From: a phage | Reading direction: 5' to 3' (one strand) | Sequence record: PX393109.1 | DNA length: 64,000 nt | In this document: positions 40,626 through 46,597 of the stretch, in pieces | How the letters are laid out: every line of letters starts with the position of its first letter | Numbering within the stretch: the stretch's first letter is position 1 | Made by a program: the position numbers and the translations under genes | The notes under the pieces: generated by a model | Databases searched by the model: none | What the model was told of the DNA's origin: nothing | What the model saw: only the letters and a program-made list of their open reading frames with translations

Positions 40626-42569
40626 ATGGAAAAAGTCGCTGCTCTGATAGAGCAAATTAAGAATGCGGCTAATGCATATTATAATGGTGACCAGCCCATT
40701 ATTACGGACGAAGAGTTCGATGCTCTTACCGAGAAATTAGCTGAGCTGGATCCTACTAACCCACTCCTCACTACCCCAGGCTGGGGAGTAACCGAAGCTG
40801 CTGAACATCTGGCTAAGTGCCCACATGGTTCATTCGTGGGTGGTCTTGACCAGGTTAAGATCGGTGCTGTGGAAGAGGGATTTAACTTCCTCCATGGTCA
40901 CGAAGAAGTTAAGGGATTCGTCGCTTCGGCTAAACTGGACGGCATCTCGGTAGTTCTGTATTACGACTACGACGGTAACTTCGTCCGTGGCTTAACTCGT
41001 CACGACGGCGTCACTGGTCTGGACATCACGAAGAGTCTGGAGTGTGCCGAGTTTCCTCGCCAGGTTCCTAAAGGTATTAAAGAAGTCCGCTGCGAAATCG
41101 TTATTCCCGATGATAAGTTCGAGCGGATCAGCCACGAGTACAGTAACCAGCGTAATGCTGCTTCTGGTATTGCTCTGGCTAAATACAGTGATCCTGCATT
41201 AATGGAACTGCTGGATGTGGTTGCATATTCGGTAACTGCATTCTACGAGGATGTGGATCACGAGACATGGATGGATGACTACAACCAGCTGCTACTATGT
41301 TTAAGTAAGGCTGGGTTCAAAGTAGTTAAGTACTTCGTTCTTCCTGCTGGTTATGTCAATACTTGGCTAGTGGCTAACCCACCATCTAAGTTCCGCGAAG
41401 ATCCGGTCTGCAACTACCTGTTGGATGGCGTAGTTCTGGGATCTCTGAATGTTGACTGGGATGAGAATATGCTGGGCAAGAATACTGTCCACTATAAGAT
41501 CAAGTACCAATCAGCATTCTATGACACTACCGTGGTTAAGGTACACTGGGTAGTTAGTGGTTACGGCCGAGTCGTGCCTACTGTTGAGTTCGAGACGGTA
41601 GACATGAGTGGAGTTAATGTAACTTATGCATCCGGATGGAATGCTGAGTACATCAAGAGTGCTGGTATCGGACCTGGTGCTAAGATCAAGATCAGTCGCC
41701 GTAACGAGGTAATTCCTCATATCGAAGAAGTCGTGGAACCCGTCACTGCGGTAATTCCTGAATTCGTCGATGGGGTACGTACTTTCTGGGATGGCGTGCA
41801 TATTCGCATCAAGACTAAGTTAGACCCGATGGTTATTCGTACGATAATCCGTGACTTCGCTCCTAAGGGTCTCGGTGGGACGAATATCAACAAGTTTGCC
41901 GAGCAGGCTAAACTAGATGATGTTGCCATGTTGAACGATATCATCGAGACTGGTCCATCTCATCCAGTATTCAGTATGGTAGAGATGTACGATGGCCCTC
42001 TCCAGCTTACTCGTCAGTCCTTCTTCAATATGAAGGATCGTCCTATCTCTATGGACCACATGCTGACCTGTACCTGGACGGATGGCCTTGGTTATGCAAC
42101 AGGAGTGCGTATTGCCACTGCGGTGACTCGCGACCAGATGATTCGTGTATTGCGTAACAATAGCTTCCACGACATGGTTAATGACGGTATCCAGGTCAAT
42201 ACCGAGGACTACAAAATCTGTAAGGCAATCTATGATGCATGCATGGGTTCCGTAGCTAAGAAGATTGTAGAGAATCAGGAAGTAATCCTGAAGGTGCTGA
42301 ATCTTCCTCTGAACTGGGTGGCCTCTAAGGTAGAGGAACCGCTTCCGGAAGGAAAGTTCAAGATCTGCTTAACTGGTAAGCTTAGTAAGCCTCGTAGCGA
42401 ACTGGTTAACTCCTGGATCAAATATGGCGTAGTCGAAGTCGGTATCGGCGACGCAGAATATCTGGTATGCGATAAACCAAGTCAGTCCAGTAAGTTTAAG
42501 GCTGCCGAAGCTAAGGGTACCAAGATCGTTACCGAAGATCAATTCCGTAAAATCATTGGAGCTGAATAA
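40626..42569 (+). CDS. ligA: NAD-dependent DNA ligase (LigA-like) with C-terminal BRCT
   Basis: N-terminal NAD-ligase Ia-like region (YY.GD.PIITDEEFD), adenylation KLDG motif (SAKLDGISVV), C-terminal BRCT-like FKICLTGKLS...EYLVCD. Confidence 0.8.
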   Translation: MEKVAALIEQIKNAANAYYNGDQPIITDEEFDALTEKLAELDPTNPLLTTPGWGVTEAAEHLAKCPHGSFVGGLDQVKIGAVEEGFNFLHGHEEVKGFVASAKLDGISVVLYYDYDGNFVRGLTRHDGVTGLDITKSLECAEFPRQVPKGIKEVRCEIVIPDDKFERISHEYSNQRNAASGIALAKYSDPALMELLDVVAYSVTAFYEDVDHETWMDDYNQLLLCLSKAGFKVVKYFVLPAGYVNTWLVANPPSKFREDPVCNYLLDGVVLGSLNVDWDENMLGKNTVHYKIKYQSAFYDTTVVKVHWVVSGYGRVVPTVEFETVDMSGVNVTYASGWNAEYIKSAGIGPGAKIKISRRNEVIPHIEEVVEPVTAVIPEFVDGVRTFWDGVHIRIKTKLDPMVIRTIIRDFAPKGLGGTNINKFAEQAKLDDVAMLNDIIETGPSHPVFSMVEMYDGPLQLTRQSFFNMKDRPISMDHMLTCTWTDGLGYATGVRIATAVTRDQMIRVLRNNSFHDMVNDGIQVNTEDYKICKAIYDACMGSVAKKIVENQEVILKVLNLPLNWVASKVEEPLPEGKFKICLTGKLSKPRSELVNSWIKYGVVEVGIGDAEYLVCDKPSQSSKFKAAEAKGTKIVTEDQFRKIIGAE

Positions 42570-42823
42570 TGTCTGTAACTTTGGAACAGGTTAAAGATGC
42601 ACTGCGATCTGCAGTAGCTGACATCATGATGGTTGATATTCTGGAAGTAACTGAAACTACTACCGGTGAGCAGTTAGGTGCAGATTCTCTGGATGAAGTG
42701 GAGATCATCATGCGTGTTGAAGATGAACTGGGTATGGAAGACAGTATTCCAGACTTCGACTATGATAGCGACGATACTCTGGAGCAGGTGGCAGAAAAGA
42801 TCGTGGCAGTTCTGAACCAGTGA
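42569..42823 (+). CDS. acyl carrier protein
   Basis: LGADSLDEVEIIMRVEDELG matches the phosphopantetheine-attachment motif (DSLD) of ACPs; acidic 84-aa protein. Confidence 0.7.
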   Translation: MSVTLEQVKDALRSAVADIMMVDILEVTETTTGEQLGADSLDEVEIIMRVEDELGMEDSIPDFDYDSDDTLEQVAEKIVAVLNQ

Positions 42824-42877
42824 TAAGCTATAGGACATCTTCGGGTGTCCTATGTCGGTATCATTGAGGATAAAATA

Positions 42878-45043: not shown

Positions 45044-45977
45044 TTCACATCAGATAACTAACTTCAGTACCATGTGGAAATATCATCTCCGAGGCGCTCT
45101 GGAGGCTAATGGAGTAGAGTTAGTATTATGGCCAGAGTACCACGATTCGGTTAATCCTCATGTCTATGCTGATCAAGTATTAGAAATAGCTCGGGAAGAG
45201 AAGTGCGATCATATCTTATATGTGGGAGTACGTCCGTTTACTCAGATTCCTCTAGAAATAGGAGAATACCTTAAGAAGCACTTTAAGGGATTAGTTACCC
45301 ATATCTATGATGGTTCGATGCTAGACTGTAAACAGGTAGACGTAACTTTCACTCTTCGGGACGATACCTATAAGTACTTAGACAATCCGAGTCGTCTGAA
45401 AAGGCATCTGGATAATAACTGGCAGGTAGGGTGGGCAGCTGATGATAAGCTATTCTACCCAGAGAAGATGTCGGATGGTGTACTTAGGATATTCGTAGAC
45501 CATCCGCTATTTGACCTGTCGGACTTCGATTACTCCCTAACCATGATGATGAACCTTAAGCATATTCCGGTTCCTCACGTATCTTACACTCTTACCGATA
45601 ATGGATTATGCGTTATCGACGAGGAGAATATAAGTGTTGAGGAGTATCGTCGTGGAGGAGTAAGCAGTCAGGAGTTCGCTGCATTAATCAGATGCTGCGA
45701 CATCTTCATAGTTACTCATAAGGAGTCGTTAGGCCTTACTGTCCTGGAAGCGGCTCGGTGCGGAGCTCTGATAGTAACTAAGGAAGGGCTTATTCCTAAA
45801 GATCGTCTGGAATCTGTGGAGCATCACATAGTTGGCTCTAAGATAAACTGGGACGAAATACTCCTTAAGCTTAACAGAACCAAGATTGCTGATAAGGTTA
45901 AAGATTGTACCTGGGATAACGTGGCTAAGAACATGATCCAGGGATTTAAACATATGGAGAAGACTAAATGTCGCTAG
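45009..45977 (+). CDS. GT-B fold glycosyltransferase (GT4-like)
   Basis: C-terminal ESLGLTVLEAARCGALIVT matches the E..G...EA...G.P donor-binding motif of GT-B enzymes. Confidence 0.5.
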   Translation: MKLLYIANCPGSSHQITNFSTMWKYHLRGALEANGVELVLWPEYHDSVNPHVYADQVLEIAREEKCDHILYVGVRPFTQIPLEIGEYLKKHFKGLVTHIYDGSMLDCKQVDVTFTLRDDTYKYLDNPSRLKRHLDNNWQVGWAADDKLFYPEKMSDGVLRIFVDHPLFDLSDFDYSLTMMMNLKHIPVPHVSYTLTDNGLCVIDEENISVEEYRRGGVSSQEFAALIRCCDIFIVTHKESLGLTVLEAARCGALIVTKEGLIPKDRLESVEHHIVGSKINWDEILLKLNRTKIADKVKDCTWDNVAKNMIQGFKHMEKTKCR

Positions 45978-46597
45978 TGGTTACGGTATTTCGTAAGGGT
46001 AAGGACTTCACAGAAGATCACGTTAAATGGGTAGGTAGACAACTCCCAGAAGGTACAAGATATGCATGTATCTCTAAAGAGCCTATCGAAGGAGTTGAGT
46101 GGATACCTATGAAGCATGATTATCCTGGCTGGTGGAGTAAGATGGAGCTATTCACTATCCAGGAGCCATTCGTGTTCTTCGATTTAGATACAGCAATTAT
46201 CGACGATATCACATTCCTGCTGAACTGTGACGAATCAACTATTCTCCGAGACTGGTACCATACTGGGATGGTTAACAGTAGCGTGATGCGTGTTGAGCCT
46301 ATCTTAGCTGAGCGCATCTGGAATGCTTGGATAGTTAGTCCAGATAGATTCATGGCTAATCACTCTGTAGGTGGTGATCAGGAGTTTATCTGCCCATTCT
46401 TTAATGGAGTACCTCGCATACAAGATCTCTACCCAGGTAAATTCTGTTCCTACAAGGTATCAGTAGTAGGTCCTGACCAGGAGCATTACTGTCACAGGTC
46501 TACCGGAAACGGGTCGGTGCCTAATGGGGTTGCAGTAGTTTGTTTCCATGGTACCCCTAGGCCATGGAATTTAAAGTATTCATGGATCCCTAAATAA
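45968..46597 (+). CDS. putative GT-A-like glycosyltransferase (DXD motif)
   Basis: FFDLDTAIIDD DXD-like motif; weak assignment. Confidence 0.4.
   Translation: MSLVVTVFRKGKDFTEDHVKWVGRQLPEGTRYACISKEPIEGVEWIPMKHDYPGWWSKMELFTIQEPFVFFDLDTAIIDDITFLLNCDESTILRDWYHTGMVNSSVMRVEPILAERIWNAWIVSPDRFMANHSVGGDQEFICPFFNGVPRIQDLYPGKFCSYKVSVVGPDQEHYCHRSTGNGSVPNGVAVVCFHGTPRPWNLKYSWIPK

Follow-up and report, generated by a model that had tools for sequence, protein, structure and literature searches.

Four overlapping glycosyltransferase-type genes of the P1 PmgO, PmgP, Dbn and PmgQ families in a relative of Escherichia phage IME392: a candidate virion-glycosylation operon

A 64,000-nucleotide stretch of phage DNA (sequence record PX393109.1; hereafter the window) carries, at positions 43908-46597, four intact and conserved transferase-fold enzymes encoded by a single operon of tightly overlapping genes. 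All four are homologous to proteins of the coliphage P1, namely PmgO, PmgP, Dbn and PmgQ. We tentatively propose that this operon builds a short glycan, with one or more virion proteins as the most likely acceptor, a reading that we regard as quite possible, though short of probable. The gene families themselves are already known, and what is new is their contiguous arrangement in the window. An initial annotation, made from the sequence alone, had described the wider region 42569-46597 as an AT-rich, horizontally acquired island encoding an acyl carrier protein (ACP), two DUF115/MptE-like proteins and two glycosyltransferases. Its observations are partly confirmed here, and its interpretation is partly supported. 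Coordinates of all features are collected in Table 1.

The first two genes of the operon encode small proteins whose catalytic core is predicted to be the same Rossmann-like fold as that of Maf proteins (MAF_flag10/DUF115) and of the GT42 enzymes CstI and CstII. Judged by their family profiles, which are homologous (hhalign 99.1%, E=5e-19), the two are distant paralogues. An AlphaFold2 (AF2) model of the PmgP-like protein, with a predicted local distance difference test (pLDDT) score of 94.3, matched the archaeal MptE 6-hydroxymethyl-7,8-dihydropterin pyrophosphokinase 8sd5, Maf 5mu5 and CstII in Foldseek searches (probability 0.96-1.0; template modelling score 0.44-0.53), and also CstI. Searching the PDB with the PmgP family sequence profile returned nothing meaningful, and fold comparison alone gave matches. 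For the PmgO-like family, CstII was the best PDB sequence match, at a level below significance (E=0.09-0.2), in an alignment that spans the GPSL and SG..G.D motifs. Both proteins open with a G-P-S-L/A motif (xSGPSL and xDGPSA) that aligns to the NGPSL of CstII. This N-terminal nucleotide motif and the SG..G.D motif are common to the pair and to Maf/CstII, and conserved histidines (H120/H125 and H168) lie downstream of both. The motifs read VASGPSL, SSGAQA..LLGYD and HFHGDH in the PmgO-like protein, and VADGPSA, SGNSAYGA, LVGVD and LSHL in its PmgP-like paralogue.

Profile homology and predicted fold thus bear out the annotated DUF115/MptE-like pair, though the Pfam PF01973 (MptE-like/DUF115) scores of 21.7 bits (PmgO-like) and 18.7 bits (PmgP-like) are both under the 34.6 cut-off. 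Some homologues of the two families have precomputed PF01973 matches, and the NCBIfam PseD model matched the MptE-like proteins at E=0.052. The pair differs from Maf proteins in build: at 178 and 211 aa it amounts to the catalytic core alone, whereas Maf proteins (~630 aa) carry large N- and C-terminal acceptor-binding domains. No flagellin or nonulosonic acid (NulO) synthesis genes, including those for the cytidine monophosphate (CMP)-activated form, were found in the window. The pair therefore has neither the multi-domain architecture of ~600 aa nor the flagellin/NulO context that define a Maf flagellin glycosyltransferase.

The remaining two enzymes correspond to the GT-B and DxD-bearing GT-A-like glycosyltransferases (GTs) that had been annotated. 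The Dbn-like protein is 46.5-48% identical to Dbn of P1 and Glt of P7. It scores just under the Pfam cut-off for Glycos_transf_1 (24.7 versus 26.4 bits; E=1.9e-5), its H-x-E-S-x-G-L-x-x-L-E motif is invariant, including E239-x7-E247 in 40 homologues, and its family profile matches PDB 8xsg, a 'putative glycosyltransferase' (3e-4). The PmgQ-like protein is modelled with a GT8 fold (AF2 pLDDT 96.9), with Foldseek matches to glycogenin (2e-7, probability 1.0) and LgtC (3e-6). Its profile matches the Skp1 alpha-GalT Gat1 (1.3e-6), glycogenin (1e-4) and also GlyE among PDB entries. A DLD sequence at residues 72-74 represents the DxD motif, of which D72 and D74 are invariant in the family. The GT-A fold, the invariant DxD and a C-terminal H-G-x-P motif are all features of the GT8 enzymes glycogenin, Gat1, GlyE and LgtC. 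Relative to solved GT8 enzymes, the PmgQ-like protein is shorter (209 aa) and 10-18% identical, and the single sequence gave no match to Pfam Glyco_transf_8.

The window is ~94-95% identical to Escherichia phages vB_EcoM_IME392 (MH719082; locus L001) and EP_H11 (OP688485; locus L002). Comparison with these relatives reveals purifying selection on all genes of the region, with ratios of non-synonymous to synonymous substitution rates (dN/dS) of 0.015-0.15, and of 0.015-0.13 for the four GT genes. In the public annotations, IME392 lacks a coding sequence (CDS) for the ACP and has a shortened one for the Dbn-like enzyme, and the PmgP-like gene is without a CDS in EP_H11, though all three genes are intact and conserved.

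The closest named counterpart of the operon is found in P1, where pmgO-pmgP-(ppp)-pmgQ and dbn encode four homologous enzymes with 31-48% identity to those of the window and with the family-invariant residues kept. The corresponding P7 proteins are HdmB, HdmC, Glt and HdmD (for PmgO, PmgP, Dbn and PmgQ, respectively; genes hdmB, hdmC, glt and hdmD). Gene order (PmgO, PmgP, a slot, PmgQ) is the same in P1 and the window. P1 differs in that dbn lies ~6 kb upstream, and the slot is occupied by a lambda-type phosphatase gene (ppp). In the window, a Dbn-type GT4 gene fills the slot, making all four GT genes contiguous and overlapping, with a DUF7217 gene preceding them. In P1, pmgO-pmgP-ppp-pmgQ stands behind the late promoter LPpmgL and C1 operators, and the genes are labelled with a 'putative morphogenetic function' only. 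Both these genes and dbn are non-essential in P1 (PMC10695390). Our search of the literature on pmgO, pmgP, pmgQ and dbn, on DUF7217, on the PHROG identifiers, and on DUF115 in combination with phage retrieved an essentiality screen only, and no functional study.

To place the operon among other phages, we sampled 80 IMG/VR loci with a PmgP homologue and scored neighbouring genes within 8 kb. A PmgQ homologue lies downstream of PmgP in every one of these loci (80/80), and a detectable PmgO homologue lies upstream in 75. Dbn is present in 43 loci, these being P1-likes. The window's contiguous four-gene arrangement preceded by a DUF7217 gene was seen in none of the 80. PmgO-PmgP-[variable slot]-PmgQ is consequently a collinear module. 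Besides the genes found in P1 and the window, its slot may contain a GT-A-like nucleotide-sugar transferase, a GT2 enzyme, methyltransferases dependent on S-adenosylmethionine or of the FkbM type, or a sulfotransferase. A conserved core combined with varying tailoring enzymes in the slot is the pattern of a glycan-building locus.

Where the module resides in other phages is informative about its acceptor. In HK97-like prophages of Ochrobactrum/Brucella and Gilvimarinus, it directly follows the major capsid gene. In two viral contigs (L021 and L038), genes for a gp6-like head-tail connector and for head completion lie between the PmgO-like and PmgP-like genes. Lambdoid phages carry the module between Rz and terS, and XacN1-like jumbo phages carry it upstream of very large proteins. 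All identifiable hosts of module-bearing phages are Proteobacteria. This recurrent placement in late operons and head modules favours virion proteins among the three targets offered by the initial annotation (a DNA sugar, virion proteins or host surface structures), with none of them proven. In L021, the intervening head-completion gene (6715-7998) encodes a Phage_HCP domain (residues 3-105) followed by a Ser/Thr/Gly-rich C-terminal extension of ~320 aa, and this protein is a possible glycosylation substrate.

We suggest the following scheme. The enzymes would act in the cytoplasm, using host nucleotide sugars to assemble a short, lineage-specific glycan. Uridine diphosphate (UDP)-sugars would be the source of the hexoses added by the GT4-like and GT8-like enzymes, and the Maf/CstII-fold pair would draw on a CMP-activated donor to attach sugars of the ulosonic-acid type. 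The most plausible donor would be CMP-activated 3-deoxy-D-manno-oct-2-ulosonic acid (CMP-Kdo), since nonulosonic acid synthesis genes do not accompany the module and all hosts are producers of lipopolysaccharide (LPS). CMP-Kdo would also be the sole CMP-activated ulosonic-type donor supplied by every proteobacterial host, and Maf enzymes can use it in E. coli (PMC11339370). The acceptor would most likely be one or more virion proteins, with the co-translated DUF7217 protein as a candidate. Virion glycosylation of this kind has been demonstrated in mycobacteriophages, whose glycosyltransferases modify their own structural proteins (Freeman et al. 2023, as relayed in PMC12582341). As far as that account goes, the mechanism is the same as the one suggested here, whereas it involves other enzyme families, another host phylum and a different gene context.

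Several observations weigh against this proposal. The operon sits amid replication and nucleotide-metabolism genes, in the same interval as a DNA ligase gene, and not among structural genes. Module-adjacent major capsid proteins in two loci (L009 and L011) are without Ser/Thr-rich tails. P1 can form plaques without pmgO, pmgP or pmgQ (PMC10695390). Three of the four enzymes score under curated Pfam cut-offs, and because the MptE fold also includes pyrophosphokinases, transferase chemistry is unproven for the PmgO-like and PmgP-like proteins. Finally, the window contains a thymidine-hypermodification cluster (8482-18020) that has no confident GT. No other clear GT is encoded in the 64 kb, so the four enzymes could act in DNA glycosylation instead.

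That last point leads to an unlikely but serious alternative, in which the module extends a sugar chain on hypermodified thymidine derived from 5-hydroxymethyl-2′-deoxyuridine (5-hmdU), as in the oligosaccharide-modified thymidine of SP-15, YerA41 and Carin-5, once the hypermodification cluster has produced and activated 5-hmdU. Besides a 5-hmdU DNA kinase, the window has genes for a YfbR-like nucleotidase, a PIG-L deacetylase and a thymidylate-synthase-like enzyme, and the GT operon lies amid DNA-metabolism genes under the same promoter-motif regime. The window's DNA polymerase (PolA-type, 1099 aa) clusters with those of RP13, Ab1-TPeters, phiXF1, SP-15 and YerA41, and both IME392 and EP_H11 have been named among "RP13-like" phages suspected of SP-15-like oligosaccharide-modified thymidine (2025 paper, PMC12686479). 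Besides this polymerase lineage, the thymidylate-synthase-like, dCTP-deaminase-like and sugar-modifying genes are common to the window and to SP-15, YerA41 and Carin-5. In those phages, however, the GT block adjoins the polymerase gene, and in the window the module is 20 kb from it.

Phylogenetic distribution argues against a DNA target. Homologues of the PmgO, PmgP, Dbn and PmgQ families were not found in SP-15/YerA41/Carin-5 type phages, nor in the other phages of the polymerase lineage (RP13, Ab1-TPeters, phiXF1 and RHph phages). Conversely, the module loci of P1, lambdoid phages and HK97-like prophages, where the module belongs to late or head operons, reveal neither hydroxymethylase nor kinase, and no glycosylated base is known from them. 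To our knowledge, P1 DNA has no glycosylated base. The DNA pathway may also have a GT of its own, since the open reading frame (ORF) 13405-14484, beside the kinase gene, gave a weak GT-B hint (Glyco_trans_1_2, E=0.017). Apart from that hint, neither this ORF nor the two other unassigned ORFs of the cluster (9324-10232 and 12323-13357) had anything significant in PHROGs or Pfam. PDB searches with 12323-13357 and 13405-14484 were empty, and both are unrelated to the Dbn family. The DNA-glycosylation literature that we examined makes no mention of the module's folds. We consider it improbable that the module acts on DNA in the specific form of a Maf/CstII-fold pair, a GT4 and a GT8 enzyme extending the hypermodified-thymidine sugar, perhaps with a Kdo-type cap and perhaps with an ACP-borne substituent.

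A further reading, to which we would give little weight, is that the module remodels the host LPS or lipooligosaccharide (LOS) core during infection, for example by blocking the adsorption of progeny or competitors to cells already infected and to debris. GT4, GT8 and CstII-type enzymes constitute a classic core-oligosaccharide toolkit: CstII is an LOS sialyltransferase, and the structure of LgtC, an LOS GT8 enzyme, matches the PmgQ-like model strongly (3e-6). Every host is a proteobacterium that bears LPS, the LPS core is the P1 receptor, and the lambdoid module is found after Rz, at a classic site for morons. An envelope role is nevertheless hard to square with interleaving among genes for the head connector and head completion. 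Repression by C1 and a late promoter would leave the P1 module silent in lysogens and late for surface remodelling. Moreover, the sequence profile places the PmgQ-like enzyme nearer to protein-directed GT8s (Skp1 GalT, glycogenin and GlyE) than to LgtC. On this evidence, virion proteins remain our preferred acceptor.

The ACP encoded upstream of the operon is genuine. It exceeds the Pfam PF00550 (PP-binding) cut-off (35.2 versus 20.8 bits; E=1.5e-8), and the annotated DSLD site is present as GADSLD, with the D-S-L serine that opens helix II (the phosphopantetheine attachment site) found in the translation as GADSLDEVEIIM. It belongs to phrog_5934 ('acyl carrier protein'), matches the NCBIfam ACP and DltC models weakly, and is conserved (dN/dS 0.09). 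The initial annotation had the ACP followed by the MptE-like genes. All of these genes are present, but they are not directly adjacent: orf88, a hairpin and the DUF7217 gene intervene. ACP and Maf genes co-occur in bacterial flagellin glycosylation islands. By analogy, the nonulosonic-acid-type sugar transferred by the Maf-like enzymes could incorporate an acyl or aminoacyl group delivered by the ACP, a link between ACP and Maf that the initial annotation had also drawn. The ACP is authentic and conserved and shares a promoter-to-promoter interval with the module, all of which is in keeping with this idea.

We nonetheless judge such ACP-dependent glycosylation to be very improbable, and the annotated link between ACP, Maf and nonulosonic acids finds no support. 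None of the 80 related loci has an ACP within 8 kb, and Pfam, PHROG and NCBIfam scans recognised no synthase, ligase, phosphopantetheinyl transferase or NulO-synthesis gene near the ACP or the module. Between the ACP and the module lie the hairpin and two unrelated genes, and in IME392 and EP_H11 the distance is greater by ~980 bp and four genes. Relatives of the ACP in other phages are weak (E>0.04) and never beside the module. Stand-alone ACPs turn up repeatedly in many large phages, and the replication module of Xanthomonas phage phiXF1 includes an ACP but no GTs. We therefore rejected the ACP as a module component, and it is a neighbour of the GT module that is unrelated to it. The phiXF1 gene (6992-7237 of locus L095) lies between gyrB-like and gyrA-like genes, and the gene for a related 1100-aa DNA polymerase follows 3 kb downstream. 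An ACP in the replication module seems to be a recurring feature of this phage lineage.

Two further genes separate the ACP from the operon. The first, orf88, encodes a small conserved protein (dN/dS 0.02-0.06) with no Pfam match. The second encodes a DUF7217 protein, whose family comprises 581 phage records, chiefly from Felixounavirus and Ackermannviridae, and some members are annotated as virion structural proteins in Ackermannviridae. DUF7217 was likewise rejected as a part of the module, since those 581 records are without these GTs and none of the 80 module loci has a DUF7217 gene. The ACP, orf88 and DUF7217 genes hence share a promoter-to-promoter interval with the GT genes, but are not conserved parts of the module.

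In IME392 and EP_H11, ~980 bp of extra genes lie between orf88 and the DUF7217 gene, corresponding to positions 7130-8110 of L001 and 7130-8080 of L002, versus 43128-43204 of the window. Small ORFs and a PinA-like gene ('inhibitor of host Lon protease') are among them. The hairpin-bearing segment 43136-43216 matches a second site in IME392 (L001 7814-7893), pointing to recombination between repeated intergenic elements as the route by which genes were lost or gained.

The module probably reached this phage by lateral transfer from enterobacterial (pro)phages. It is common to the window and to P1-like, lambdoid and HK97-like (pro)phages of Proteobacteria, and this patchy distribution is discordant with the genomic backbone. 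Absence of the module from phages of the same polymerase lineage, together with a shift in codon usage, supports this origin. Third-position GC content (GC3) of the four GT genes is 0.40 versus 0.47 (Mann-Whitney p~0.01), and the codons AGA, ATA and TTA make up 6.7% of the total in these genes versus 2.5% (Fisher p=3e-11). Horizontal acquisition, as originally suggested, therefore stands mainly on phyletic distribution, with composition providing lesser support and no sharp boundaries.

The AT-rich island itself survives only as this codon shift. GC content of 42569-46597 is 43.7% versus a window mean of 45.6%, which is 1.7 standard deviations low (standard deviation 1.1, equal-sized windows), and 7% of equal-sized windows have GC content as low. 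The lowest-GC stretch is at 48.5-52.5 kb, with low GC running on from the region to 52 kb, and there is accordingly no bounded AT-rich island. Composition is not clearly outside the genomic range and has no sharp boundaries; only codon usage is significantly shifted. The flanks contain no tRNA genes, and no meaningful direct or inverted repeats that might serve as island boundaries.

The region lies between two copies of a phage-specific, promoter-like motif, CCGCTCTTTT-N5-TCnAAAGGCTGTTAAnnTGT. The window has 16 core copies, at 5094, 8444, 9285, 11626, 13365, 15501, 17357, 20941, 24542, 34826, 40583, 46619, 51688, 53085, 55804 and 56879. All are on the + strand and intergenic, and every copy is 20-80 nt 5′ of a start codon, against a chance expectation of 0. 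The motif is probably a phage-specific promoter, and possibly serves the phage's own multisubunit RNA polymerase. Copies bracket 40583-46619, and none occurs inside it, which places the ligase, ACP, orf88, DUF7217 and four GT genes in one promoter-to-promoter interval. This interval is broken by a hairpin at 43160, which may be a terminator or attenuator, or a stem-loop in a 5′ untranslated region. The window has two such sibling hairpins with UUCG loops, at 8383-8404 (GGGTGAC-TTCG-GTCACCC) and 43160-43179 (GGGAGAC-TTCG-GTCTCCC). They differ by a compensatory change in the stem, and each is followed by a T-run. The former heads the hypermodification cluster, and the latter heads the DUF7217-GT operon.

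Nearly all genes of the window are on the + strand, and profile searches identify its content as a replication and nucleotide-metabolism block. Identified genes encode an Mre11/Rad50-like protein, topoisomerase II, a helicase, PolX, an NAD-dependent ligase, dUTPase-like and dCTP-deaminase-like proteins, and split RNA-polymerase beta-like proteins, in addition to the thymidine-hypermodification cluster. In a single 921-aa ORF at 1667-4432, an Mre11-like N-terminus of the calcineurin-like phosphoesterase type is joined to a Rad50/SMC-type ATPase with a zinc-hook match; this is an SbcCD/Mre11-Rad50 fusion. ORFs 28502-30016 and 31596-33164 match beta-subunit families of phage multisubunit RNA polymerases (phrog_25354, 3015 and 2987). 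The phage thus appears to encode a split, non-canonical RNA polymerase as jumbo phages do, despite a genome of only ~111-116 kb. Directly 3′ of the DNA polymerase gene is the lowest-GC gene of the window (24633-25358; 38.8% GC; 12% AGA/ATA/TTA/AGG/CTA codons). It has an endonuclease match (phrog_681), and its product is probably a homing endonuclease.

Table 1. Features of the glycosyltransferase-type operon, its surroundings and the thymidine-hypermodification cluster (positions in the 64-kb window).
Feature	Coordinates	Strand	Remarks
Promoter-like motif (..AAAGGCTGTTAA..)	40580..40599	+	5′ of DNA ligase gene; upstream boundary of interval
Acyl carrier protein, 84 aa	42569..42823	+	GADSLDEVE helix-II motif; start overlaps ligase stop by 1 nt
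orf88, small conserved protein	42845..43111	+	phrog_7644, 6.3e-19
Terminator-like hairpin	43160..43186	+	AGGGAGAC-TTCG-GTCTCCCT, then T-run; in 92-nt gap 5′ of DUF7217 gene
DUF7217 protein, 235 aa	43204..43911	+	Pfam PF23854, 1.8e-77; stop overlaps next start by 4 nt
PmgO-like MptE/Maf/GT42-fold protein, 178 aa	43908..44444	+	phrog_4603, 1.8e-35; 31% identity to P1 PmgO
PmgP-like MptE/Maf/GT42-fold protein, 211 aa	44408..45043	+	phrog_2111, 7e-62; 47-48% identity to P1 PmgP
Dbn/Glt-like GT4-type (GT-B) glycosyltransferase, 322 aa	45009..45977	+	phrog_2518, 6.6e-97
PmgQ-like GT8-fold retaining-type glycosyltransferase, 209 aa	45968..46597	+	phrog_1962, 2.5e-55; 33% identity to P1 PmgQ
Next copy of promoter-like motif	46616..46635	+	19 nt past PmgQ-like stop codon; downstream boundary of unit
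Methyltransferase-like gene	8482-9222		Thymidine-hypermodification cluster (8482-18020)
Three ORFs of unassigned family	9324-10232, 12323-13357, 13405-14484		Hypermodification cluster
BCCT betaine/carnitine/choline transporter	10236-11618		Pfam 4e-92; unusual for a phage
PIG-L/LmbE deacetylase	11705-12316		Hypermodification cluster
5-hmdU DNA kinase	14484-15455		PF18723, 4.8e-35
AAA_28/thymidylate-kinase-like gene	15533-16267		Hypermodification cluster
Thymidylate-synthase-like gene	16264-17337		Hypermodification cluster
YfbR-like HD nucleotidase	17421-18020		Hypermodification cluster

PmgO, PmgP and PmgQ (with Dbn) of P1 were annotated two decades ago and have had no function assigned since. 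They represent a glycosylation module that is conserved and collinear and has a variable slot for tailoring enzymes. The module is distributed across very different phages of Gram-negative bacteria and often found inside head-morphogenesis operons. If DNA were the target in the lineage described here, the module would supply enzymes for an unsolved hypermodification pathway. These would be the missing enzymes of the SP-15/YerA41-type oligosaccharide-modified thymidine pathway, and the first known enzymes of sialyltransferase fold to glycosylate a nucleobase. If virion proteins are the target, as we tentatively favour, virion glycosylation, so far shown in mycobacteriophages, would extend to coliphages, including a classic model phage. 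This would in turn matter for how therapeutic phages are recognised by the immune system, and for phage-host recognition.

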